From an uncultured Bacteroidota bacterium (lineage in GTDB: Bacteria > Bacteroidota > Rhodothermia > Rhodothermales > Salinibacteraceae), in the NCBI GenBank assembly GCA_913056185.1, contig CAJXLV010000012.1, positions 3,688 to 67,687 on the forward strand: 64,000 nt of DNA, written 5' to 3'. How positions within the stretch are numbered: the stretch's first letter is position 1; each line of letters starts with the position of its first letter. The position numbers and the translations under genes were made by a program. This document shows, piece after piece, positions 30,973 through 48,786 of the stretch. Below the pieces are notes generated by a model. It had not been told where the DNA came from. It did no database searches and saw only the letters and a list, made by a program, of their open reading frames with translations.

Positions 30973-31491
30973 TTAGGCAATTTCAAGCCGTCCGTCCAGC
31001 TCTCCGGAGGGGTGATCGATCTCGGCACTCGCCGGCAGGCGGGCGATCAGCTTCTCAATCAGATCGTCGCTGTCCTGAACATGTCGATGAAAGGTGAGGG
31101 CCGGCTCGTGGTCGGCGTCCACGTAGATCTCGACGCTCACGCCCCCAATAAACACGCGGCGCACCTCCTCGAAGGAGACCTCTCGACCGGCTCGGAGGGG
31201 GCGCTCCTTCCGAAGCCGATCCTCCGTCAGGGACAACTCCGAAAGGAGAGAGGGGACCGCCGACACAGCAGCGCCAATCAGTCCCGCAATTGCGCCTGTA
31301 TACGCTCCCCAATTCATCCCGGACAGCCCCTTGATAACCATCGTTCCGGAAATCGCGAGGACCGAGAGGGCAACGATGCCGGCCGTTCCGTACGCCCCCC
31401 ACCGGTAGAGAGGCCCGTGGCGGTAGACCTCCGTATGCTCAAAGGAGCGTTCAGGGGACCGGGCATCGTTGTCCGACGTGCGAGAGCTCAT
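30973..31491 (-). CDS. Hypothetical membrane protein (2 TM helices plus a possible PH-like domain)
   Basis: MSSRTSDND start, two hydrophobic helices, then a beta-rich acidic domain. Confidence 0.6.
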   Translation of the reverse strand: MSSRTSDNDARSPERSFEHTEVYRHGPLYRWGAYGTAGIVALSVLAISGTMVIKGLSGMNWGAYTGAIAGLIGAAVSAVPSLLSELSLTEDRLRKERPLRAGREVSFEEVRRVFIGGVSVEIYVDADHEPALTFHRHVQDSDDLIEKLIARLPASAEIDHPSGELDGRLEIA

Positions 31492-31585
31492 GGTGGAACG
31501 CGGAGGGATGTGCTCGGAGTCATCGATCCTTGACGAAGGGCGCCCGGGACAGATTGACGAAGGGAACCTCCATGCTGCTCGCGTC

Positions 31586-31882
31586 TCACGAGAGAAGGAG
31601 TCTCCCCACCTGCACCCCGGCCGTGAGGACGAAGATCCCAATGCCTGCGTAGCGCCACCCGTTCGCCTCGGCTCCTCGCTCCTCCCGAATCCGTGCCCAG
31701 ACGAAGCATCCACTTCCCACTCCAATCCCAGTGAGGCTTGCGGCCCCGGAGTAGTCGCCGACCCAGAGCGTCAGCCCGATGGCAGCGACCAGCAGTGCGT
31801 TGACGGCCCAAATCGCAGGCCAGTTGATCGGAGAAGAGCTCCAGAAATCGATTTCGGGGCGTTCGGAAGCGGCGCTCGACAT
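31586..31882 (-). CDS. Small hypothetical membrane protein (about 3 TM helices)
   Basis: 98 aa with three hydrophobic stretches, co-oriented with neighbouring genes. Confidence 0.5.
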   Translation of the reverse strand: MSSAASERPEIDFWSSSPINWPAIWAVNALLVAAIGLTLWVGDYSGAASLTGIGVGSGCFVWARIREERGAEANGWRYAGIGIFVLTAGVQVGRLLLS

Positions 31883-36553: not shown

Positions 36554-37264
36554 ATGCCAAAAACGATTGACCAGACCTATCACATGCTCATTGTGGAGGA
36601 CGACACAGACATTCTGATGGGGCTGGAGGAATACTTTGAACTGGAGGAGTATAGCGTCGAGACGGCAGAAGACGGCGCTGAAGCGCTGCAGAAGATGCAA
36701 GACATGGACAAGTGCGACGTGGTGCTCCTGGACGTCATGCTTCCGAAGAAGGATGGCTTCGAGGTCCTCGAGGAGTCGCAAGAGATGGGCTTCAGCGCAC
36801 CGATTCTTATGATCACGGCCCGCGGCGAACAGGAGTCGAAGCTCAAAGGCTTTGGCCTGGGAGCGGATGATTATGTGACCAAGCCGTTCAACGTGGAAGA
36901 ACTGGCTGCGCGCGTGAAGGCCATCCTGCAACGGACGAAGCCGCCGGCCGAGGCGCCGATGGATGTGTACGAGATTGGGGATGTGGAGGTCAACTTCACC
37001 ACCCACGAGGCCTTTCGGGACGACAAAGAGTTGAACTTCACGGCGTTGGAATTTGACATTCTGCGCTACCTCATTCAGCACAAGGGGCGCACCGTCACAC
37101 GCAAGCAGCTCTTGCGCGACGTGTGGGGGATCGACGAGAACATCATTACCCGCACCATCGACCGCCACATGGCCTCCGTTCGCAAAAAGATAGAGCCGGA
37201 CCCCTCCGACCCCACCTTCATCGAGACTGTGTACGGCATCGGCTACCGGTTTGACGACGAGTAG
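36554..37264 (+). CDS. OmpR/PhoB family response regulator
   Basis: IVEDD, LLDVMLP (phosphoacceptor Asp), DYVTKPF, and a winged helix ending ETVYGIGYRF. Confidence 0.95.
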   Translation: MPKTIDQTYHMLIVEDDTDILMGLEEYFELEEYSVETAEDGAEALQKMQDMDKCDVVLLDVMLPKKDGFEVLEESQEMGFSAPILMITARGEQESKLKGFGLGADDYVTKPFNVEELAARVKAILQRTKPPAEAPMDVYEIGDVEVNFTTHEAFRDDKELNFTALEFDILRYLIQHKGRTVTRKQLLRDVWGIDENIITRTIDRHMASVRKKIEPDPSDPTFIETVYGIGYRFDDE

Positions 37265-37276
37265 CCGCCCGGCATG

Positions 37277-38017
37277 CTACCCGGAGGCATCCGGGGATTC
37301 GGCCACGCGCTCCGCCCCTTCCAGCTTGTACCCAATGCCGTACACACTCTGAATGGGCCAGGCGTCTTCGGCGTCTCCGTCCATGGCATCGCGGAGGGCA
37401 TTCACGTGCCGGTCGATGGTGCGCGTTTCCACCTCCGTGGGCAGGTCCCATACATCTCGGAGAATTTGCTCGCGGGTAGCCGTGCGGCCCCGGCGGCGCA
37501 GCAGGTATGCAAGCAGCTTGTACTCCAGGTCCGTGAGGTCGACCGGGGAACCGTCGCGGGTCACCGTGTCCGTGGTCAAATCCACATGCAGCCCGCCCAC
37601 CGCAAACACCCCATCCTCCGTATCGGCCTCCGCCTCGCGGCGCAGCAACACATCGATGCGGGCCACGAGCTCTTCGGTCTCAAACGGCTTCGTGAGGTAA
37701 TCATCGGCCCCGACTTGGAAGCCACGCATCTTGTGCTCGTGGTCGCCGAGGCCAGTGAGCATGAGGACAGGGGTGCGGACGCCATCGTCGCGGGTCTGGC
37801 GAAGCACCTCGAACCCGTTCAGGTCGGGCAGCTTCGCATCCAGCACAATCAGGTCGTATCCCGGGAGGCGGGTGGCCTCCGTCAGGGCTGTCTCTCCATC
37901 TTCCGCCAGCGTGACATCGTATCCTTCGGATTCGAGGTACAAGAGAAGGCTGGTGCTGAGTTCGCTGTCGTCTTCTACAACGAGAAGCGAGGGCCCTTGC
38001 GGACGCGTATCGGGCAT
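37277..38017 (-). CDS. OmpR/PhoB family response regulator
   Basis: VVEDD, VLDAKLP, DYLTKPF, RTIDRHV and SVYGIGYKL. Confidence 0.95.
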   Translation of the reverse strand: MPDTRPQGPSLLVVEDDSELSTSLLLYLESEGYDVTLAEDGETALTEATRLPGYDLIVLDAKLPDLNGFEVLRQTRDDGVRTPVLMLTGLGDHEHKMRGFQVGADDYLTKPFETEELVARIDVLLRREAEADTEDGVFAVGGLHVDLTTDTVTRDGSPVDLTDLEYKLLAYLLRRRGRTATREQILRDVWDLPTEVETRTIDRHVNALRDAMDGDAEDAWPIQSVYGIGYKLEGAERVAESPDASG

Positions 38018-38194
38018 GGGAAAGACGAGAAAGTCAGGATCAGGGAAACGTGAGAAGGGGGACGGCCGGGGGGAACGCTCGGCTGGGAGCAGCCGGGCCT
38101 GCAGAAACGCATTGCTCTTGGACGGGCGGCAGTAGGGTACTGCGCGTCGGGGAGGGCTACGCCCCCCGGCAGGGAAACGGGTCTCGCGTGCGCC

Positions 38195-39634
38195 TTACCC
38201 ATGCATCACCGCGAGGGGCTCCAGCCGGGCCACCTTGCTGGCCAGTCGGGCTCCCGCCACCGTTTCCACGACGCCATCAATGTTTTCTTTGACCCGGACG
38301 CCGCTGGCAGGGCTGCCCCCCTCGCCCGAGCGTACCGCAACGCCTTTGTTCTCGAGTTGCTCATCGAGCGCCACGGGCTCGGCCTGATGGTTGGCCTCGT
38401 GCCGACTCATGGTACGCCCGGCCCCGTGGCATGCAGATCCAAAGCTTTTTTGCATGGCGTCGCGCGTGGCGAGCATGACCCACGAGGCCTCCCCCATGCT
38501 GCCCGGCACAAGAACGGGCTGGCCGAGGGCACGGTACGGAAGAGAGATGCCGGGAGTGCCGGGGCCAAAGGCGCGGGCGGCTCCCTTCCGGTGCACGTAG
38601 CAGCGCATGTGCTTCCCGTCCACCTGGTGCATCTCCACCTGGCCCAGGTTGTGCGCCACATCGTACACCGTCTTTAGGCGCTGGCCCGCGCCATCAAGCA
38701 AATCATCGAACACCTCGCGGACGCGATGGGCCAGCACTTGGCGGTTGGCGTAGGCATAGTTGGCGGCCGCACGCATCGCCCCCATGTAGTCCTCGGCTTC
38801 GCTGGAGTCGAGGGGAACCGACACAAGGTTCGGGTCCGGCGGCGTAATGTCGTAGGAGGGCGCTGCCTCTTGGAACCGCTCCATGTAGTCGGCACAGATC
38901 TGACGCCCGTAGCCCCGGGAACCGCAATGGACCTGGGCCACGAGCGTCCCCTCTTTCAGTCCCATTGTGACGGCGGCCGCGCGGTTGAACACCTCTTCTA
39001 CGGAGTGGATCTCGATAAAGTGCTCTCCGCCGCCAAGCGTGCCCAGCTGTTGCGCCCCCAGCGAGCGGGCCGCCTCGCTCACCTTTTTCGGATTGGCCTC
39101 GTTCAGCCGTCCCCCCTCTTCCGCCCGCACTAAATCGTCCTGCTGTGCCATGTCTTTGCGGAGGGCCCACTGCGCGCCGGACTGGGCCACATGGTCCACC
39201 TCGCTCTTGGTGAGCGACATGGGCCCTTCTGCATCAACGCCGCTCGGGATATGGGCTTTTAGTGCATCAGCGAGTCCATCAAAATTCCCCTCCGCCTCTT
39301 CTACACTGATGTCGGACCCCAGTAGGCGAACCCCAGCGTTGATGTCGTGCCCGATGGCCCCGGGGGCAATGGTGCCGACCGGCCACTTCGACACCGCCAC
39401 AATGCCCACAGGCGCGCCCTGTCCGCTGTATACGTCAGGCATCACCACGAGATGCCCCACCAACCCCGATAGCATCGCGGTGCGGATGGCCTGATCGATG
39501 GCCTTCCGTTCAAGAATCTCGTCGATGAGGTCTTCGCTCGCGAGGATGCGTACGGGCACGCGCATCGCGTCCTGGAACGACTGGGGAATCTCCCAGGTGA
39601 AGTCGTCGATCCGCGTCAGGTCCGTTCGTTCCAT
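38195..39634 (-). CDS. rtcB: RtcB-family protein with non-canonical active site
   Basis: MPD, HDINAG, GGGEHFIE, HCGSRG, YDVAHN, HRKGA, PGSMG and SACHGAGR; 479 aa with no internal stops. Confidence 0.9.
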   Translation of the reverse strand: MERTDLTRIDDFTWEIPQSFQDAMRVPVRILASEDLIDEILERKAIDQAIRTAMLSGLVGHLVVMPDVYSGQGAPVGIVAVSKWPVGTIAPGAIGHDINAGVRLLGSDISVEEAEGNFDGLADALKAHIPSGVDAEGPMSLTKSEVDHVAQSGAQWALRKDMAQQDDLVRAEEGGRLNEANPKKVSEAARSLGAQQLGTLGGGEHFIEIHSVEEVFNRAAAVTMGLKEGTLVAQVHCGSRGYGRQICADYMERFQEAAPSYDITPPDPNLVSVPLDSSEAEDYMGAMRAAANYAYANRQVLAHRVREVFDDLLDGAGQRLKTVYDVAHNLGQVEMHQVDGKHMRCYVHRKGAARAFGPGTPGISLPYRALGQPVLVPGSMGEASWVMLATRDAMQKSFGSACHGAGRTMSRHEANHQAEPVALDEQLENKGVAVRSGEGGSPASGVRVKENIDGVVETVAGARLASKVARLEPLAVMHG

Positions 39635-39846
39635 ACGCTTGAGCTCGCGCACGCACGAGGGCATTCCCCCCTCTTCCACGCCGCGTCTGTTTGTTCTTGG
39701 TGTGAGAAGATGGGTTTTGAACCCTCATTGGAATTTCAGTGTTCCATTTTTCGTCGCGCTCTGGCCTAACACGCCTAACAAGGTGCGCAACGCCTCGTCT
39801 CCTTCGCAGACGCAGCGCCGAGGGCCCGCCCCCCCAACCAGTCTCG

Positions 39847-40995
39847 TTACGCCGCCGCAGGGGACGCCGCCGCGGCTGTCGACGACTCGGCGTGCCCAAC
39901 CTCATGGATCCACCCGCCGCCGAGCACGTCGTCGTCCTCATAGAGCACAAGGCTCTGGCCCGGCGTAATGGCGCGGCGCGGCTCCGAGAAGGCCACCTTG
40001 AGGGTATCGTCGTCGGGCTGCCACGCGAGGCAGCCGGCCCCATCGTCGTTGTAGCGGATGGTGCCCCAGGCCGGACGTTCTTCCTCCAGCTCCGGGTATT
40101 TCACCAGGTTGATCTCGTGCGCCGTGAGGGTCTGCTCCATAAGCTCTTCCCGCGGCCCTACAGTAATGGTGTTTGTCTTCGGATCAATGGCGGTGACGTA
40201 AACGCGCTCTCCGAGGGCCAAGTCCAGCCCTCGTCGTTGGCCGACGGTATAGAACGGATAGCCGTCGTGTTCGCCCACCACGGTGCCGTCGCTGAGGACA
40301 AACGTTCCGCCACTTACCTCCTCCTCCAGGCCGTCGACGTGGTCTTTCAAGAACCGGGGATAGTCGTTGTCGGGGATGAAGCAAATCTCGTAGGAGTCGG
40401 GCTTGTCGGCCACGCTGAGCCCAAAGTCGGCGGCCATTTCGCGAATCTCCGGCTTTTTGTACTCGCCGAGTGGAAAGATCGACCGCGCAAGGTGCTCCTG
40501 GGGCAGGCCCCAGAGCGCGTAGCTCTGGTCCTTGGTGCGGTCGAGACCTCGGCTCAATACGTACCGCTCCAGCGACTCGTCGTAGCGCACGTTGGCGTAG
40601 TGGCCCGTGGCAATGTACTCGCAGTCCAGGTCGTCGGCCCGTTGTAGCAGGGCCGCCCACTTGATGTGCGTGTTGCACAAGACGCAGGGATTGGGCGTAC
40701 GGCCTGAGAGGTACTCATTGGTGAACCGCTCGATCACCCAGTCGCCAAATTCCTCGCGGATGTCAACGACAAAGTGCGTGAGGCCGTGCTTGGTGGCCAC
40801 AACCCGGGCGTCGTTCATCGATTCGATGGAGCAGCAGCCGACCTCCTTCCCGTCGCGACCGCCACTGGTGGAGTAGTCCCACGTTTTCATGGTAATCCCG
40901 ATCACTTCGTAGCCGCGCTCGCTCAGCAATACAGCGGTTACGGACGAGTCGACGCCGCCGCTCATGGCGACCAGTACGCGTCCCTTCTTGCTCAT
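39847..40995 (-). CDS. mnmA: tRNA 2-thiouridine(34) synthase
   Basis: AMSGGVDS, TPNPCVLCN, ATGHYA, KDQSY and DSYEICF. Confidence 0.97.
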   Translation of the reverse strand: MSKKGRVLVAMSGGVDSSVTAVLLSERGYEVIGITMKTWDYSTSGGRDGKEVGCCSIESMNDARVVATKHGLTHFVVDIREEFGDWVIERFTNEYLSGRTPNPCVLCNTHIKWAALLQRADDLDCEYIATGHYANVRYDESLERYVLSRGLDRTKDQSYALWGLPQEHLARSIFPLGEYKKPEIREMAADFGLSVADKPDSYEICFIPDNDYPRFLKDHVDGLEEEVSGGTFVLSDGTVVGEHDGYPFYTVGQRRGLDLALGERVYVTAIDPKTNTITVGPREELMEQTLTAHEINLVKYPELEEERPAWGTIRYNDDGAGCLAWQPDDDTLKVAFSEPRRAITPGQSLVLYEDDDVLGGGWIHEVGHAESSTAAAASPAAA

Positions 40996-41432
40996 GCCTG
41001 GGGGGTCCGTCTTGATGGATGGTGTGTATGGACAAATACTGAACCTGCCTCTATGCCCGGGCGTTCCAGCGCGTTGTGCTATCAACCAGGTGGTGACTGG
41101 CGTTCTTCCCCCCTCTGTCGGCGAATTTCCGGGCGGAGTCGCGTAGGGCGCCCGTCGCACGCCGGAGGGCGGGCGCAGGCGTGTGCCACCGGGCCTCGTT
41201 CCACCGAACCGCTTGCCTCAAAGAAGAGTCGCCCCCGCCCGGACAACTCCCCAGTAGGACATGTAGGTTTCTCACTCAATGTAGGCTTCTCCTTCAGCCG
41301 TTGAGGGAACGCAGCAGCACGCTCCCCCACCCTCTGCAGCAGCTCTTTAGCCAATATTCGCTTGTACCGCAACTCGGAAAGAAGGATGTTGAGGAGACAC
41401 CTAATCTTCTTTCGTCACTCCTTCCTACCCAT

Positions 41433-41901: not shown

Positions 41902-42453
41902 TCAGACCCCATCGACCTCCAGTCGATAATAGACAACCGCCCGTACGACGCCGCCCCCGTCCGGGACGTCTTGCGGCGCATCCACTTCAAACTCCCCAAA
42001 GACCGATGAGGCCCCGTCCCGAACGACTCCAGTTACCGGTGTTGTGCTGCGGTCGGTGACAGGCTCTGTAGCGCCGTCGGGAAACGTTGCGCGGGCGATG
42101 CGCGGGCCGCCCGCATCCGATCCCAGAAAGAGCAGTCCCTCCCTGGGAGGGGCTGTGATGGGCACAACGGCTACACTGTCCACCCGTGCGGAGACAACAT
42201 CGCTGCGGGAAAAGCCATTGTCCGCAAGGATAGCGTCCAGCGTTCTTCCCTCTACGGTGGAAGCCACCCCCAGCGTGCCGTCTTCCGCCACCTCCGCACG
42301 GGTGTACTCAAACCGGTACTGCACAGTGGGCGGCACGGCCGAGTTTGCGCTGAGGAGAACCGTGCTGTTTGCCGACGACAGGTCGCACCCCGAAAGCATG
42401 AGCAGAGGCCCAAGCAGCACGGCCGCCGCTGTCCATTGAGACGAAAACTGCAT
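41902..42453 (-). CDS. Hypothetical lipoprotein
   Basis: Lipobox LSGC followed by a beta-rich domain. Confidence 0.7.
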   Translation of the reverse strand: MQFSSQWTAAAVLLGPLLMLSGCDLSSANSTVLLSANSAVPPTVQYRFEYTRAEVAEDGTLGVASTVEGRTLDAILADNGFSRSDVVSARVDSVAVVPITAPPREGLLFLGSDAGGPRIARATFPDGATEPVTDRSTTPVTGVVRDGASSVFGEFEVDAPQDVPDGGGVVRAVVYYRLEVDGV

Positions 42454-42539
42454 CGCAGGATCGTTCTTTGAGGAGGACGTAAACACGGATGGATGCCGTG
42501 GACTGCCTCGGACGCATCCGCGGGTGCAAAGCCGCTCGG

Positions 42540-43832
42540 TCACTCCGCCCCCGCAATTCCTTTGTTATATTCGTTTTTGTAGGCCCGGACGGCCCGGAAA
42601 ATGCCACTGGCGAGATAGGTCTGGCCACGATCGCTGTTTAGATACCGGGCTTCTCGCGGGTTGGTAAGGTATCCCAGCTCCACGAGCACCGCCGGCATGG
42701 AGGCCCCCCACAGGACGTAAAACCCGGCCTGCCGCACGCCGCGGCTGCGGCGCTGAACGCGGTCCTTAAACTGCTGCTGAACGATGGACGCAAAATCCTC
42801 GCTGAATTGCATATTGGAGCTTAGAAAGAGCTCTCCCTTCACAAACGCCTCCGCATCGTACTGCTCGTAGCGCGCTGGGTTGCTCTCGTATTCTCGGACG
42901 ACGCTGTTCTCCGTGCGCATCACCCGGCGGGCCGCATCGGTCTTCGACGGTCCCAGGAAATAGGTCTCCGTGCCATTAACAGACGAAGACCGGAAGGCGT
43001 TGGCGTGGAGGGAGATAAAGAGATCCCCACCGGCCCGGTTCGCCAGGCGGCCGCGCTCCTTCAGCGGGATAAACCGATCGTCGGAGCGTGTGTAGACGAC
43101 CTCCAGTCCCAGTCGCGTCTCGATGTAGCTGCCCAGCTTGCGCGCCACATCCAGCACGATGTGTTTTTCCTGCAGCCCATTGGCCACCGCCCCGGGGTCT
43201 TTGCCGCCGTGTCCGGGGTCGATCACGACGGTATCGAGGCGCGACCGGCGGCGGGTAAACTGCGCAGCGGCGGGGGAATCAGCACGCGCCGCGCCGGCGC
43301 CGTTGGCTGTGGCAGGGCGGGCGTCTCGACCGCGTGGGGGCGAGGGAGCCGTGGCCACGGGAGGCCCCTCGTCTGCATGCTCGAGGTTCAGCAGAAGATC
43401 GCTGGAGGCAGCGTCGCGGTATGTCGTGGCCGAGACCGAACGTCCTGGGTGCAGGTGCACTCGGATGACGAGGGGACCCGCCGTGCGGGTGGGCGTGTAG
43501 CGCCGGACCGGGCCCTGGGGATCGCTCGGCTGGTAGGCGTCGTGGAGCGAGGCGTCGTAGACCACCCATTCCAGCGTGTGCGCGTCGATGCGACGAAGCA
43601 GGTACGCCTCCGGGGAGGCGGTAGTCCGCATGCGCATGACATAGCCCTGCCCGTCCGACCGGGCGGTGAAGGACACATCCGTGACGAGCACGGCACCGTG
43701 GGCAGGGCCTGCGCACATCAGCATGCCTCCCAGGAGTCCCCACGCGATTATGCGCCTGTGCCCCCCCGAAGGCCTTTGGGGGACTACGGGCCGCGGGGCA
43801 AGACTGGCGAGAAGACGACGGAGCCACTGCAT
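42540..43832 (-). CDS. N-acetylmuramoyl-L-alanine amidase (Amidase_3), probable AMIN-like N-terminal domain
   Basis: IDPGHGGKDPGA, EK, FISLHAN, and AVLVELGYLTN. The start is uncertain (43832 or further in). Confidence 0.9.
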   Translation of the reverse strand: MQWLRRLLASLAPRPVVPQRPSGGHRRIIAWGLLGGMLMCAGPAHGAVLVTDVSFTARSDGQGYVMRMRTTASPEAYLLRRIDAHTLEWVVYDASLHDAYQPSDPQGPVRRYTPTRTAGPLVIRVHLHPGRSVSATTYRDAASSDLLLNLEHADEGPPVATAPSPPRGRDARPATANGAGAARADSPAAAQFTRRRSRLDTVVIDPGHGGKDPGAVANGLQEKHIVLDVARKLGSYIETRLGLEVVYTRSDDRFIPLKERGRLANRAGGDLFISLHANAFRSSSVNGTETYFLGPSKTDAARRVMRTENSVVREYESNPARYEQYDAEAFVKGELFLSSNMQFSEDFASIVQQQFKDRVQRRSRGVRQAGFYVLWGASMPAVLVELGYLTNPREARYLNSDRGQTYLASGIFRAVRAYKNEYNKGIAGAE

Positions 43833-44030: not shown

Positions 44031-44759
44031 TCATCGCGTGCGGGTGGAGTCGATCAGTCGCCGGAGGTGGCGAGCAATCATTCGGTCGCGCATCTGGGCT
44101 CGCCGTTGCAGATTGCGTTGCAAGGTACGGATCTGGCGCTGCAGGCGCTGAATCTCGCGACGACGGTTGGCCTGCTTCAGCGCAAAGATGTCCGCAAGCA
44201 TAGCGCGGAGGGTATCGATGCGGGTTGTACGCTCCGGTCCCTCCGGCATCAGCCGGATTTCGTGGGCAAGATCGCGGGCCGTCCGTTCCATGCGTCGTTC
44301 GCGGAGGAGGCGCTTGTAGAGCGTGCGGCTGGAGCGCTGGATCTCATTCAGGTAGCGCCCCTGCTCAGCGCCCGAAGCAGGCGTGTCGGACGCCGAGCGC
44401 CTGGACGTGCCCGGGGCCCATCCGCCGAGCACGACAGACCTGCGCTCCTCGCGCACCTCTTGTTCGGTGGTGGGCGTCAGGCCATCGGCCTCCACAGCAA
44501 AGAGACGGCCATTGAGCTCCAGGACGGGCCGCTGGATACCAAGGAATCGGTAGCGGGCATGCACGCCACGCAGATCCAGGCTGTCCGGCAATTGATCATC
44601 GGCAAGGGGGCGGCCGTCCACATAAACAGTGCCGTCGCGGATGTGCAGGGTATGGCTGGGCTGGGCAGAGGCGACCGGGCCGTTCAGCCCCCAAAGAAGC
44701 CCCATGAGCAGGAGAGCCGTAGCCAGGAGGGGCGCAGATGAAGAAGAACGCGATAGCAT
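44031..44759 (-). CDS. Secreted hypothetical protein with C-terminal coiled coil
   Basis: Sec-type signal ending ASA-Q and an Arg-rich helical C-terminus; third gene after the sigma/anti-sigma pair. Confidence 0.65.
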   Translation of the reverse strand: MLSRSSSSAPLLATALLLMGLLWGLNGPVASAQPSHTLHIRDGTVYVDGRPLADDQLPDSLDLRGVHARYRFLGIQRPVLELNGRLFAVEADGLTPTTEQEVREERRSVVLGGWAPGTSRRSASDTPASGAEQGRYLNEIQRSSRTLYKRLLRERRMERTARDLAHEIRLMPEGPERTTRIDTLRAMLADIFALKQANRRREIQRLQRQIRTLQRNLQRRAQMRDRMIARHLRRLIDSTRTR

Positions 44760-44819
44760 GAGTGCAACAATAGACCAATAGGAGCACGAAGAGGAGACCG
44801 TCACCGGATGCACCAGGGC

Positions 44820-45398
44820 TCAGGGGCGCTGTACAGGCTGTAGGGCGCTGCCCCAGCGGTCGGGTCGGCTGTGAGCCCGGAGGCGTTCGATGCGGCGGTG
44901 AATACGCACCAGTTCATCACGGTCGTCCCAGGTCGGCACGGCAGTGGAGGGAGCCGAGGAAGAGACAGCCCCCTCCGGGGCCGTGGCCTGCGACTCCGCC
45001 GCGGAGCGTCCCGAAGAGGCTGCAGGAGCGGGAGCACCGGCCTCACTGCGGCCTTGCCACCAGCCCAGCCCCACCAGCAGGACAACAGCCAGGGCGGCGC
45101 CGGCCGCCTGAAGGCGGCCCGCCCAGGACCGCTGTGGAGCATGGGCCGGACGGGAGTCGCGGGACGAAGGGGGCGGCCCCGTCGGGGCCTCTGCGGCCGT
45201 CCGCGCCGTCTCCACCACCTGGTCCACCACCGCTGGATCGGGACGGGCGGCAGGACACGCGTCCAGCTGCTCTTTGGCTTCGCGCAGACGCTGGTATTCC
45301 CGAAGCAACGATTCATCCCTCGCCAGGCGCCGGGCCAGGGACGCTTCGTCCACCTCTTCGTCGTACAGATACATCAGAAGACGCAGCCGATCGTCCAT
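44820..45398 (-). CDS. Putative anti-sigma factor (single TM helix, no zinc motif)
   Basis: Directly downstream of the ECF sigma gene; short helical N-terminus (LMYLYDE) and a central TM helix. Confidence 0.65.
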   Translation of the reverse strand: MDDRLRLLMYLYDEEVDEASLARRLARDESLLREYQRLREAKEQLDACPAARPDPAVVDQVVETARTAAEAPTGPPPSSRDSRPAHAPQRSWAGRLQAAGAALAVVLLVGLGWWQGRSEAGAPAPAASSGRSAAESQATAPEGAVSSSAPSTAVPTWDDRDELVRIHRRIERLRAHSRPDRWGSALQPVQRP

Positions 45399-45449
45399 CG
45401 GGAAAGAGGGGCGTGTGGGGTGTGGGGCAGGAGTTCGAGTGCAAATTGG

Positions 45450-46055
45450 TCACGCATCGAGCGTGCCGGCGAGCGCCGTCTCGTTGGACGCCTCCATCAT
45501 CTTGCGCAGGTTTTTCAGGGCATACCGCATGCGACCGAGCGCCGTGTTGATGGATACGTCCTGAAGCTCGGCAATTTCACGGAAGGTCAGGTCCGTCTCC
45601 TGGCGCAGAAGCAGCACCTCGCGCTGCTCGGGCGCCAGCTCATCGATGTGGGCGTCCAGCCACTCGCGCTGCTCGGCGCGGTGGAGCTGCTCGTCGGCGT
45701 ACGGCGCGTCGGCCTCCAGGGTGTCCCAGAAGGAACGGCCGTCATCTTCGCCCTGGGGCACTTCCTTCCACTTCTTCTGCTTGCGGGTGTGGTCGATGGC
45801 CGCGTTGCGCGCAATGCTCATCACCCAACTCAGCCACTGGCCCCGACGGTCGTAGGACCCCCGCTCGCCCTGCATGGCCTTGATCACGCGCTCAAAGGTT
45901 TCCTGGAAGAGATCATTCGCCGTGGCGCGGTCCTTGACCATGCCCATGAGGTAGCCAAAGATACGGTCCTGGTGTCGCTCCACGAGCCGACGGAAGGCCT
46001 GCCCGTCTTCCTCCTCCAGGTACCTTGTCACCAATTCTTCGTCGGTAGGCTGCAT
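45450..46055 (-). CDS. ECF sigma-70 factor
   Basis: DLFQETF, WVMSIARNAAID, TFREIAE and SINTALGRMRYA. Confidence 0.93.
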   Translation of the reverse strand: MQPTDEELVTRYLEEEDGQAFRRLVERHQDRIFGYLMGMVKDRATANDLFQETFERVIKAMQGERGSYDRRGQWLSWVMSIARNAAIDHTRKQKKWKEVPQGEDDGRSFWDTLEADAPYADEQLHRAEQREWLDAHIDELAPEQREVLLLRQETDLTFREIAELQDVSINTALGRMRYALKNLRKMMEASNETALAGTLDA

Positions 46056-46083
46056 GCGGAATCCCATCTGTTGGCAGTGCCGG

Positions 46084-46109
46084 GACGTGGGGGCATGGCA
46101 CCAGTTCGA
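46084..46109 (-). promoter_or_regulatory. Candidate ECF-type autoregulatory promoter
   Basis: The - strand reads TCGAAC-N16-CGTC (AAC-N16-CGT spacing), about 30 nt upstream of the sigma start. Confidence 0.35.
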
Positions 46110-46286
46110 ACGAGCATCCCAGCGCGATTATTGTGTGCCCCGTCCACTCATTCGGGAAGTGGCCGCAAGGACCGTTCCGACCTCGTCTCCGGAAGAGGTC
46201 CTCCGAAGCGCGTGGGGGGCTCCGGACTCCGCGGCACGGTCGCCCCGATCTCTTCTCGGCACTGCGACAATGTGTCGGCCCGCATG

Positions 46287-47663
46287 CTACAGCACAATGT
46301 CCACCACCTCGCGCAGCTGCTCGGCCCCGGACACGGCAATCTCGTAGTCGCCCGCGATCCGTTCCAGGTTGTTCTCCGGCACCACGGCGCGGTCGAACCC
46401 CAGCTTGGCAGCCTCCTTCAGGCGCGGCTCGATTTGGCTCACCGTGCGCACCTCTCCGCCCAGCCCCACCTCCCCAATAAGCACCGCCCCGGTGTCGGCG
46501 GGAATGTCGCGGAAGGAGGAGGCAGCGGCGATGGCCACCCCGACGTCCACCGCCGGTTCTTCGAGGCGCACCCCGCCCGCCACGTTGATGAACACATCGT
46601 GGTCGCTAAAGGCGAGGCCCGCGCGCTTTTCCAGCACCGCCAGGATCATCTGCAGCCGCTGCGACGCGAAGCCGGTCACCGTGCGCTGCGGGGTGCTGTA
46701 GGAAGTGGGCGTTACCAGCGCCTGGATCTCCACCAGGATGGGCCGCGTCCCCTCCAGCGAGCACACCACCGTGGAGCCGCTCACGCCGTAGCCCCGCTCC
46801 GAGAGGAACAGCTCGCTCGGGTTGGGCACCTCGTGGAGGCCGTCCTCGCGCATCTGAAACACCCCAATCTCGTTGGCCGCCCCAAACCGGTTTTTGACGC
46901 TGCGCAGGATGCGATAGGCGTGGTTCTGATCGCCTTCAAAGTACAACACCGTGTCCACCATATGCTCCAGCACCCGCGGCCCGGCAATGGTGCCTTTCTT
47001 GGTGACGTGCCCCACCAGGAAGGTGGCAAACTCGCGCTCCTTGGTCAGCTTGAGGAGCGAGGCGGTGCTCTCGCGCACCTGGCTGACCGAGCCGGGCGCA
47101 CTCGTGAGGTCGGGGCGATACAGGGTCTGGATGGAGTCGGCCACCAGCAGGTCTGGCTCCACCGTTTCGACCGCGTTGGCAATCTCCTGCACGTTCGTCT
47201 CCGCCAGGAGGTAGAGCGCGTCGGAATCCACGCCCAGCCGCTGGGCCCGGATCTTCACCTGTCGCTTCGACTCCTCGCCGGTGACGTACAGGATCGTACG
47301 GGTGGGCAGGTAGCCGCCCAGCTCGGTCATGAGCGTGCTCTTGCCAATGCCGGGGTCGCCGGCGATGAGGCTGAACGAGCCCTGCATAATGCCCCCGCCC
47401 ATCACCCGGTCGAACTCGTCGACGCCGGTGCAGAGCCGCGCCTCCTCACCAAGGTCTACCTCGGTGATCTGCGTTGGCCGGTTTGCCGAGCCCTGTCCGT
47501 TCTGCCCGTCGGTGGTCAAATCCGGGACGCGGGCCTCTACGTCGGCAGACTCTGTCTCTCTTACGAGCGTATTCCACGCCCCACAGCCCGAGCACTTGCC
47601 CATCCACTTGTGTGCCTCGTGCCCGCATTCTTGGCAGACGTACTTGGGACTGGAGTTCGCCAT
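46287..47663 (-). CDS. radA: DNA repair protein RadA/Sms
   Basis: C4 zinc finger, GDPGIGKST, KNRFG and a Lon-like C-terminus. Confidence 0.97.
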   Translation of the reverse strand: MANSSPKYVCQECGHEAHKWMGKCSGCGAWNTLVRETESADVEARVPDLTTDGQNGQGSANRPTQITEVDLGEEARLCTGVDEFDRVMGGGIMQGSFSLIAGDPGIGKSTLMTELGGYLPTRTILYVTGEESKRQVKIRAQRLGVDSDALYLLAETNVQEIANAVETVEPDLLVADSIQTLYRPDLTSAPGSVSQVRESTASLLKLTKEREFATFLVGHVTKKGTIAGPRVLEHMVDTVLYFEGDQNHAYRILRSVKNRFGAANEIGVFQMREDGLHEVPNPSELFLSERGYGVSGSTVVCSLEGTRPILVEIQALVTPTSYSTPQRTVTGFASQRLQMILAVLEKRAGLAFSDHDVFINVAGGVRLEEPAVDVGVAIAAASSFRDIPADTGAVLIGEVGLGGEVRTVSQIEPRLKEAAKLGFDRAVVPENNLERIAGDYEIAVSGAEQLREVVDIVL

Positions 47664-47943
47664 GAATCGCTCAGAACCTGTGTGGGAAGGAATGCGAAAC
47701 CGACGTGCGCGAAGCGCGGCCCGCACCGGACGCGAGCACGTGTGGGGGCTTGTCGGGGCGGACGTTTGCCGCGCCCAACGCGTGGGGGGACCGACAGGAC
47801 CCGGCCGGGCAACGCGGCGCCGCGGGGGCCTCACCGGAGGCATTTGTGGGCCACCGTTCCCGGACGCCAGGCGCAAAGATCAAGGGACGTTCACAGAGGA
47901 ACCTCCCCGCCGACCCGAATGTGCACTATGCGCGCACCCCAGG

Positions 47944-48786
47944 ATGGATGCATTGTCCAAAACCTATACGCCGCCCGGCCTCGCGTTGTCCCCGCCCCTC
48001 GACGTGCCCTTCCAAACAGCCGCCCGCCCCGCGGTGCTCGACTCATTGCTCGCCCCCTTCCGCGCCCTTGGCCAGTACGCCATCCTGATTGGCCGCGCGT
48101 TCGCGTCGGTCGATGAGTTTCGGATGTACTGGAAGAACCTGTTTATCCAGATGGTGCGCATCGGCATCGACTCGGTGCCCATCGTCGCGCTGGCCGCGGC
48201 GTTTTCCGGGGCCGTACTCACCGTACAGACGGCGTACCAGTTGGAAACGCCCTTCATCCCGAAGACCATCATCGGCTCCATCGTCGCCCCCTCCATCATG
48301 CTGGAACTGGGCGTGGTGGTGGCCGGGTTCATCCTGGCGGGGCGGGTCGGGGCCCGCATCGCCGCCGAGCTGGGCACGATGCGCGTGTCGGAGCAAATCG
48401 ATGCCCTGGAGGTGATGGGCCTCAACTCAATCGGGTTTCTCATTCTGCCGCGCGTGCTGGCGGGCGTGGTCATGTTTCCGATGCTGTACGTGGTGTCCTG
48501 CATCGTGGGGATTGGCACCGGCATCCTCACCGGGGAGGTGGGGGGCTTTCTCAGCGCCAGCGAGTTTCTGGAAGGGGCCCGCCAGTTTTTCCAGCTGCTC
48601 GATCCGTTGATCGGCTTCATCAAGTCGGTCGCCTTCGGCTTCATCGTGACCTCCATCGCCTGCTACAAAGGCTACTACACCGGCGGGGGCGCCGTGGGCG
48701 TGGGCGATAGCACCACGCAGGCGGCGGTGCTGAGTTGCGTGTTCATTCTGGTGGCGGATCTTCTGGTGGCCATGCTGCTGCTGTGA
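47944..48786 (+). CDS. mlaE: MlaE-family lipid ABC permease
   Basis: ELG...AGRVGARIAAELGTMRVSEQIDALEVMG and GVGDSTTQAAV. Confidence 0.93.
   Translation: MDALSKTYTPPGLALSPPLDVPFQTAARPAVLDSLLAPFRALGQYAILIGRAFASVDEFRMYWKNLFIQMVRIGIDSVPIVALAAAFSGAVLTVQTAYQLETPFIPKTIIGSIVAPSIMLELGVVVAGFILAGRVGARIAAELGTMRVSEQIDALEVMGLNSIGFLILPRVLAGVVMFPMLYVVSCIVGIGTGILTGEVGGFLSASEFLEGARQFFQLLDPLIGFIKSVAFGFIVTSIACYKGYYTGGGAVGVGDSTTQAAVLSCVFILVADLLVAMLLL

Follow-up and report, generated by a model that had tools for sequence, protein, structure and literature searches.

RtcB is the universal 3'-phosphate RNA ligase and acts in tRNA splicing, XBP1 splicing and bacterial RNA repair. To our knowledge, the metal-bridging cysteine of its active site has been held indispensable in every study so far. 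Here we describe an RtcB-family gene without this cysteine, carried on the minus strand of a 64,000-nt stretch of DNA from an uncultured bacterium of the Salinibacteraceae (GenBank assembly GCA_913056185.1, contig CAJXLV010000012.1, positions 3,688 to 67,687). The whole stretch, and not the RtcB-like gene, is referred to hereafter as the window, and the product of the gene as the window protein. Comparison with its relatives suggests, at a probability that we put at roughly 0.5, that the window protein is still a metal-dependent enzyme that acts on nucleic-acid ends through a covalent histidine, with no thiolate in its metal site and with its nucleotide pocket remodelled. The same rough odds apply to the gene being a functional branch, specific to the Salinibacteraceae and inherited vertically, of the long (archaeal/Chloroflexota-type) RtcB family.

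Residues are numbered as in the RtcB of Pyrococcus horikoshii (Pho; the PH1602 extein, 1UC2, 4DWQ, 4DWR, 4ISZ, 4IT0, 7LFQ and 8DC9) unless called window residues; the Pho sequence was reconstructed from the phmmer alignment and its numbering confirmed. In this enzyme Cys98 links metal M1, held by His234 and His329, to metal M2, held by Asp95 and His203, and a Cys-to-Ala change blocks all RtcB steps and not just the last (PMC9745838, PMC8051266), which bears out what an earlier note on this DNA had stated about the bridging role of the cysteine and the ligase-dead Ala mutants. Asn202 hydrogen-bonds the bridging oxygen between the alpha- and beta-phosphates of GTP and anchors the 5'-OH nucleophile, and N202A is inactive (PMC9745838, PMC8051266, PMC3973293); the corresponding E. 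coli mutant, N167A, does not join strands but de-guanylylates the capped end instead (PMC8051266). Lys480 reads guanine O6 and Glu206 reads N1/N2, and the K480A, E206A and F204A proteins are inactive alone and are rescued by archease (PMC9745838, PMC3973293). The 5'-OH strand is contacted by Arg190, Gln194, Arg238 and His242 (PDB 7LFQ; PMC8051266). The cysteine is easily oxidised to a sulfonate, after which both metals are blocked (PMC8051266, PMC10630183). Bacterial RtcB paralogues can also diverge in activity, as seen for RtcB1-6 of Myxococcus xanthus, where ligation is set against capping (PMC10630183).

The RtcB-like gene occupies 38195..39634 (-) and encodes 479 aa, from an ATG at 39634 to a TAA stop at 38195-38197. 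The longest open reading frame (ORF), 38195-39679 (-), begins 15 aa further upstream at an in-frame GTG at 39679 and is 494 aa long; the ATG was preferred because 479 aa fits the lengths of the homologues (477-482 aa). The window protein covered the Pfam profile PF01139 (RtcB) from end to end (1-426/426; 457.4 bits against a cut-off of 27) and matched P. horikoshii RtcB over residues 6-479 with 43% identity (phmmer against the PDB, E=5e-125); the window gene differs from it in having no intein and no archease partner nearby. An AlphaFold2 model built from an alignment of clade and canonical homologues had a pLDDT of 88 and a pTM of 0.89, while the model from a clade-only alignment was weak (pLDDT 69). 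All 16 significant Foldseek matches of the predicted model were RtcB or RTCB, with TM scores of 0.92-0.93 to 4DWQ and 1UC2 (rmsd 2.5-2.7 Å) and 0.88-0.93 to human RTCB with PYROXD1 (PDB 8ORJ), which has the same fold. By homology and predicted fold, then, the window protein is a member of the RtcB family.

Within the family, none of the NCBIfam equivalog models accepted it. The window protein missed the NCBIfam cut-offs for PRK09588 (NF007153; 155.7 versus 407 bits) and for the release-factor-H-coupled RtcB (TIGR03073; 119.4 versus 271.8 bits), and no prfH context was seen in the ORFs scanned, which sets it apart from PrfH-coupled RtcB2, likewise a bacterial RtcB of diverged activity. Its best NCBIfam match was NF038162, 'intein-containing RtcB', in two stretches that flank the absent intein. 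A second RtcB homologue was not found by tblastn within the 64-kb window. The RtcB paralogues of Myxococcus xanthus keep the canonical Cys/Asn site.

Much of the catalytic apparatus was retained in the window protein. The motifs HFIE, HCGSRG, DVAHN, HRKGA, PGSMG and SACHGAGR are present, and Asp65, Asp95, His203, Phe204, Glu206, His234, Arg238, His329, Asn330, His337, Ser385, His404, Arg408 and Arg412 are kept. All four His and Asp metal ligands are in place: His234 of M1 lies in HCGSRG (38912..38929, minus strand, as for all motifs given here) together with the 5'-OH-strand contact Arg238, and His329 in DVAHN (38648..38662) together with the gamma-phosphate contact Asn330, while M2 retains Asp95 and His203. 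The nucleophile histidine (Pho His404, window His403; CAC, 38426-38428) is found in SACHGAGR (38414..38437) together with Arg408, and its partner aspartate (Pho Asp65, window Asp67) in PDVY (39428..39439), where His67 has been replaced by Tyr (TAC, 39428-39430).

Other positions had changed, and here the alignment and codons agreed with the earlier note, which had described a full-length intact ORF with conserved motifs and a re-wired active site. An Ala (GCT, 39335..39337) stands in DINAG at the position of Cys98, and a Glu (GAG, 39023-39025) replaces Asn202 in GGGEHFIE (39011..39034), in which His203, Phe204 and Glu206 are kept. The segment EEAPGAYK (Pho 445-452) is replaced by ASGVRVKE (38285..38308), in a low-confidence part of the AlphaFold model, and the protein ends in VMHG (38198..38209), with His (CAT, 38201-38203) for Lys480, the guanine-O6 contact. 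Two of the guanine contacts, Phe204 and Glu206, therefore remain beside a changed Lys480 and a replaced EEAPxAYK segment. The changes listed in the note were all real; their extent proved wider. Arg190 is Leu and His242, two residues past HCGSRG, is Arg, so that, of the five mapped contacts to the 5'-OH strand (Asn202, Arg190, Gln194, Arg238 and His242), two besides Asn202 were altered while Arg238 and Gln194 were kept. The GYGFPIGG loop is altered, Thr383 has become Glu in PGSMGEAS (38483..38506; Ser385 kept), a change shared by 89% of the clade described below, and Y70Q, F72A and Y94H were also found. Judged against the canonical ligases, the window protein lacks two defining residues, Cys98 and Asn202, and gives a mixed picture for the guanine pocket and for the 5'-OH-strand contacts.

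Substitutions at residues held essential are the only point in favor of simple decay or artefact, under which the gene would be a recent rtcB pseudogene or its sequence would carry sequencing or assembly errors. All 47 of the coding sequences (CDS) extracted from the clade were intact. The median dN/dS over all clade pairs was 0.072 by the pairwise Nei-Gojobori (NG86) method, the estimates being rough on saturated dS, as are the neighbor-joining (NJ) trees; overall, dN/dS ranged from 0.01 to 0.10 at dS values of 0.3-2.3, mostly at least 1. Between the window gene and its in-family orthologues, dN/dS was 0.02-0.10 with dS saturated at about 1-1.9. Over the same genome pairs the median dN of the rtcB-like gene was 0.087, compared to 0.070 for mnmA, 0.117 for the downstream response regulator and 0.153 for the M42 peptidase; values of dN/dS for the second response regulator were left out, being partly paralogue mis-assignments. 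The altered residues are written with different synonymous codons in different genomes: Ala98 with all four GCN codons (GCT, GCA, GCG and GCC), Thr98 with three ACN codons and Glu202 with both GAR codons. This synonymous turnover shows that the states at 98 and 202 are old and maintained, and because the same states recur in this manner in dozens of independent genomes, chance and sequencing error are ruled out. The gene was also present in RNA libraries (see below). The RtcB-like gene is thus maintained at a housekeeping level, with a dN close to that of mnmA, and we consider decay or artefact to be excluded for practical purposes. The earlier note had named canonical close relatives and relaxed selection as the signs of decay; what was found instead is a conserved, monophyletic clade under purifying selection, in line with its suggestion that the gene is maintained.

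The clade was delimited by a search of 5.8 billion proteins, with clusters taken at 90% identity. Homologues P0001-P0077 run continuously from 99% to approximately 59% identity, followed by a step to canonical 483-aa proteins at 51-54%. The clade holds about 75 protein clusters and 45 genome or species loci and was monophyletic in the NJ tree (bootstrap 100/100), as was a crown group containing all the Thr, Ala, Val and Met98 forms and no Cys98 (98/100); the tree gave no clear branching order among the basal Cys-bearing group, the Ser-bearing group and P0072. In two scans with one genome per species, the only hosts were Salinibacter, Salinivenus, Longibacter, Longimonas and metagenome-assembled genomes (MAGs) of hypersaline Salinibacteraceae/Rhodothermales. 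When 15 billion proteins were clustered at 50% identity, the clade collapsed to one representative, and the next match to the clade profile was a canonical RtcB from Chloroflexota. These long-form RtcBs of Chloroflexota (Anaerolineales; NF038162, P0140 and P0078-P0120) are the nearest canonical relatives, with 51-54% identity and the same extein length and architecture; they differ in having the full canonical site (C98, N202, EEAPxAYK and K480) and in coming from another phylum and from settings that are not halophilic. Several of them (P0140/P0141, loci L109-L117) carry an intein of approximately 440-520 aa exactly between DIN and Cys98, in which case the metal-bridging cysteine is also the +1 splicing nucleophile.

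The combination of Glu202 with loss of the AYK motif was found in none of 40 representatives (50% identity) outside the clade. Three homologues from outside had departures of other kinds, which may represent clades or errors: P0157 is canonical apart from a Gly at the position of Cys98 (FDINGGVR), P0263 reads DIACG and GNGSHY and has no AYK, and P0256, from another lineage, is broadly degenerate, with His404, NHF and the metal motifs lost. Full-text literature searches returned no description of a cysteine-less RtcB clade or of an RtcB from Salinibacter or other Salinibacteraceae.

Clade members share Glu202 (89%), xGGVQ[VIL]KE in place of EEAPxAYK, His or Arg480, Glu383, Leu190 and Arg242. 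Positions 202, 451 and 480 were changed throughout, as was 98 save in the Cys-bearing basal members; some 90% of members had changes at 190 and 242, and a minority had one at 412. Asp65, Asp95, His203, Phe204, Glu206, Arg238, His329, His337 and His404 were invariant, and His234 was changed in one member. As judged from this alignment, erosion of the active site is selective and not general. The earlier note had asked whether homologues with both DINAG and GEHF form a conserved clade. A conserved clade does exist, but Ala is not its defining state: residue 98 floats, being most often Thr (53%), then Ala (21%), and also Ser, Val or Met, with Cys in five basal members (P0064, P0069 and P0073-75) and Ser in other basal lineages. 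Because every basal lineage has Glu (or Asp) at 202 and no AYK, and the outgroup has Cys, the parsimonious order places Glu202, the loss of AYK and the change of Lys480 to His or Arg at the root of the clade and the loss of Cys98 later.

Conservation within the clade was not confined to the old active site. The segment ARAFGPGTPGISLPYRALGQPV (38513..38578, minus strand; window residues 353-374) had an entropy of 0.00-0.07 in clade members down to approximately 60% identity, compared to 1.5-2.7 in canonical RtcBs, and three more blocks, at residues 147-159, 165-178 and 296-306, were likewise invariant specifically in the clade. These four segments, lying where canonical RtcBs vary most, point to gained constraints and not to losses alone, and the ARAFGPGTPGISLPYRALGQPV loop could be a candidate interface for a new partner or substrate. 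The clade proteins were also more acidic, with a net charge per residue of -0.040 versus +0.001 in canonical RtcBs, mainly through fewer basic residues, as expected for salt-in halophiles. Some of the Asp and Glu gains may be general halophilic drift; Glu202 sits inside the active site.

Under the reading that we prefer, of a thiolate-free enzyme, window His403, positioned by window Asp67, would attack the nucleotide as in the canonical reaction, and divalent metal would still be held by Asp95/His203 and His234/His329. The two metals would no longer share a thiolate bridge, charge and bridging being supplied instead by the carboxylate of Glu202 beside His203, perhaps by Glu383, and by substrate phosphate or solvent. 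The outcome would be a harder, oxidation-insensitive metal site favoring Mn2+ or Mg2+ over thiophilic metals. The base pocket (His480, the Lys and Glu at 451/452 and the GYGFPIGG loop) and the contacts to the 5'-OH strand (R190L and H242R) would have been remodelled at the same time, and because both were remodelled, the cofactor, the nucleic-acid substrate or both probably differ from those of canonical GTP/Mn RNA ligation. Insensitivity to oxidation is a plausible selective benefit in an aerobic, high-light habitat because the canonical cysteine is prone to oxidation and inactive when oxidised (PMC8051266, PMC10630183). Eukaryotes shield this cysteine with a partner oxidoreductase, whereas the clade has removed it. 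Catalytic competence, the role of Glu202, the preference for metal and nucleoside triphosphate, and oxidation resistance as the selective reason are matters that we infer. More tentatively still, with odds clearly below even, the clade may represent a natural RtcB lineage that repairs or joins ends through a His-NMP intermediate with a carboxylate or solvent bridge and no thiolate-bridged binuclear manganese; such an enzyme would be insensitive to oxidation, might work with Mg2+, with some nucleotide besides GTP, or with both, and would have arisen along a path from Glu202 through Cys-to-Ser to Thr or Ala.

Several observations weigh against a thiolate-free enzyme. The window protein holds the equivalents of all three engineered changes that are individually inactivating in E. 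coli and P. horikoshii (C78A/C98A, N167A/N202A and K480A): each is ligation-dead in canonical RtcB, the first at all steps and the second at joining, and archease rescues only K480A (PMC9745838, PMC3973293). The clade is unlike these laboratory single mutants in being under strong purifying selection and in carrying many co-occurring changes that may compensate. The AlphaFold2 model was of low confidence in the two stretches that fold over the nucleotide, namely window residues 404-422 just past the nucleophile and 438-449 in the replaced EEAPxAYK region; the rest was well modelled. Arg408 or Arg412 is gone in some basal members. Position 202 is Gln in P0007, P0052, P0054 and P0058, Gly in P0053, Ala in the Longimonas group and Asp in P0075, and several lineages without Glu202 are also without Cys, so that there is no universal single replacement ligand. 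The proposal of the earlier note that the new Glu replaces the thiolate thus stood in part. Glu202 was present at the root of the clade while Cys98 persisted in some basal lineages, so its gain came before the loss of the thiolate, the order needed for a ligand swap; yet Glu202 cannot be an indispensable replacement ligand, because Cys-less lineages without it are constrained. Genes of the Longimonas sub-lineage, with Thr98 and Ala202, were intact and had omega values of 0.01-0.05. Longimonas halophila and its relatives (L065-L069; P0066 and P0070) have, in addition, Ser67, Thr330 and Asn or Ser480 and no Glu383 or Arg412.

The same observations feed the leading alternative, a maintained pseudo-ligase that has lost nucleotidyl transfer and is kept as a non-catalytic binder, of RNA/DNA 3'-phosphate ends, nucleotide or metal for instance, or as a partner or regulator of another protein, with the residual His/Asp cluster serving ligand binding or folding. 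The substitutions at C98, N202 and K480 would be expected of such a protein, as would the semi-relaxed state of 98 and 202 within the clade, the further erosion at R408, R412 and N330 in some lineages and the loss of two of the five 5'-OH-strand contacts through R190L and H242R. A partner might bind at the surface loop that is invariant specifically in the clade, and purifying selection of enzyme strength is also shown by functional pseudoenzymes. However, no member has changed at His404 or Asp65; D95, H203 and H329, which make up three of the four metal ligands other than the cysteine, are likewise invariant together with H337, F204 and E206, with H234 changed once, and this invariance spans family-level divergence at which dS is saturated. 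A nucleophile is of no obvious use to a binder, and the genuinely degenerate P0256, from which H404 and the metal motifs are gone, gives an example of true erosion. Sequence alone does not decide between a pseudo-ligase and an altered enzyme, the two possibilities raised in the earlier note. We lean to an enzyme because the His404/Asp65 dyad and nearly all of the His and Asp metal ligands are invariant, and regard the pseudo-ligase as the less probable of the two, though a substantial possibility.

A further alternative, which we consider improbable, is that the protein carries out only some of the RtcB steps, or another reaction, without joining strands; the candidates are 2',3'-cyclic phosphodiesterase activity, capping or de-capping of 3'-phosphates, and action on DNA ends or a protein substrate. 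The behavior of the E. coli Asn167 mutant, which de-guanylylates a capped end without joining, and the role of Asn202 in holding the 5'-OH nucleophile (PMC8051266) provide a precedent, given that Asn202, R190 and H242 are changed while the guanylylation core (H404, D65, the metal His and Asp residues, E206 and F204) is kept. Consistent with this, RtcA, archease and RtcR were absent both from the 14 ORFs scanned with Pfam between about 28 and 48 kb of the window and from ±10 kb in three syntenic relatives, in agreement with the earlier note. In canonical enzymes, however, loss of Cys98 stops every step and not only the last, the contacts R238 and Q194 to the 5'-OH strand are kept, and there is no positive evidence for any specific alternative substrate.

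The surroundings of the gene are those of an old chromosomal gene. As the earlier note had observed, mnmA (39847-41160, minus strand) lies upstream, separated from the RtcB-like gene by a spacer of 212 bp (39635..39846), and an OmpR-type response regulator (37277..38017, also minus strand) follows the RtcB-like gene after 177 bp. The window, Longibacter salinarum, a 2.4-Mb contig of a Salinibacteraceae MAG and a JGI MAG share the order RidA, mnmA, (small ORF, ZapE-like ATPase), rtcB-like gene, response regulator(s), M42 peptidase and class-II DAHP synthase. Because this order is common to the window and its relatives, the RtcB-like gene has long been part of the Salinibacteraceae chromosome and has passed down vertically. 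An association with mobile elements or defence was rejected in view of this housekeeping synteny across genera and of the absence of any PADLOC defence-system match for the RtcB-like protein.

The interval between mnmA and the RtcB-like gene varied (intervals compared: L001 7763-9738, L003 7974-9624 and L004 9442-9813). In Longibacter and a basal Salinibacteraceae MAG it holds an ORF of approximately 120 aa without a Pfam match and, on the opposite strand, a ZapE/AFG1-type ATPase; the JGI MAG (L004) has the small ORF alone and the window has only the 212-bp spacer. Downstream, a second, divergent OmpR-type regulator (36554-37264, plus strand) faces the first, so that two regulators with receiver and Trans_reg_C domains lie on opposite strands with their 3' ends 12 bp apart; the pair is kept in Longibacter, and the ORFs scanned within approximately 10 kb of it included no histidine kinase. 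The mnmA ORF as listed is 437 aa with a GTG start, giving an N-terminus some 45-50 aa longer than in orthologues (386-392 aa); translation probably begins near 40995, at the Met of MSKKGRV roughly 55 residues further in. ORFs without a Pfam match (E<=0.001) were found at 44871-48116 (plus strand), 44031-44813, 41902-42543 and 30973-31725 (all minus strand), the largest of them, of 1081 aa, lying 5 kb from the RtcB-like gene.

Contigs matching the RtcB-like gene at 93-100% identity were recovered from four salt-lake metatranscriptome runs (X25-X28). Word depth was 70-420 over the RtcB-like gene, compared to mostly 3-50 (up to 138 in one bin) over mnmA, contig depth being a crude measure in libraries where DNA carry-over is possible; we conclude from these contigs no more than that the RNA libraries contain the gene. 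A rise in depth within the 39635-39846 spacer, in the direction of transcription from mnmA to the RtcB-like gene, is suggestive only. The RtcB-like gene and the response regulator after it may be co-transcribed, as one RNA contig spans the 3' end of the former and the latter. In the strain from which this contig came, the intergenic stretch 38060-38194 is swapped for 159 unrelated letters. A transcription start at 39707, where several contigs end, was rejected, because the position is a unitig junction with an overlap of exactly 30 nt (39678-39707) to the following contig. A scan for promoters and terminators gave nothing above shuffle expectation, with models that do not cover Bacteroidota-type promoters.

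The Salinibacteraceae keep an RtcB under housekeeping constraint without Cys98, Asn202 and Lys480, which raises the question of which parts of the active site the chemistry needs. The cysteine is also the weak point of RtcB under oxidation. Basal members of the clade that hold Cys98 together with Glu202 are ready evolutionary intermediates for experiments. An inactive protein would, on the evidence of our literature searches, be the first RtcB pseudoenzyme known to be conserved, and an active one would provide a natural template for RNA ligases that are resistant to oxidation or use a different cofactor. Should the thiolate-free reading be true, the 'essential' Cys, Asn202 and Lys480 would be features of one solution and not of the chemistry itself.

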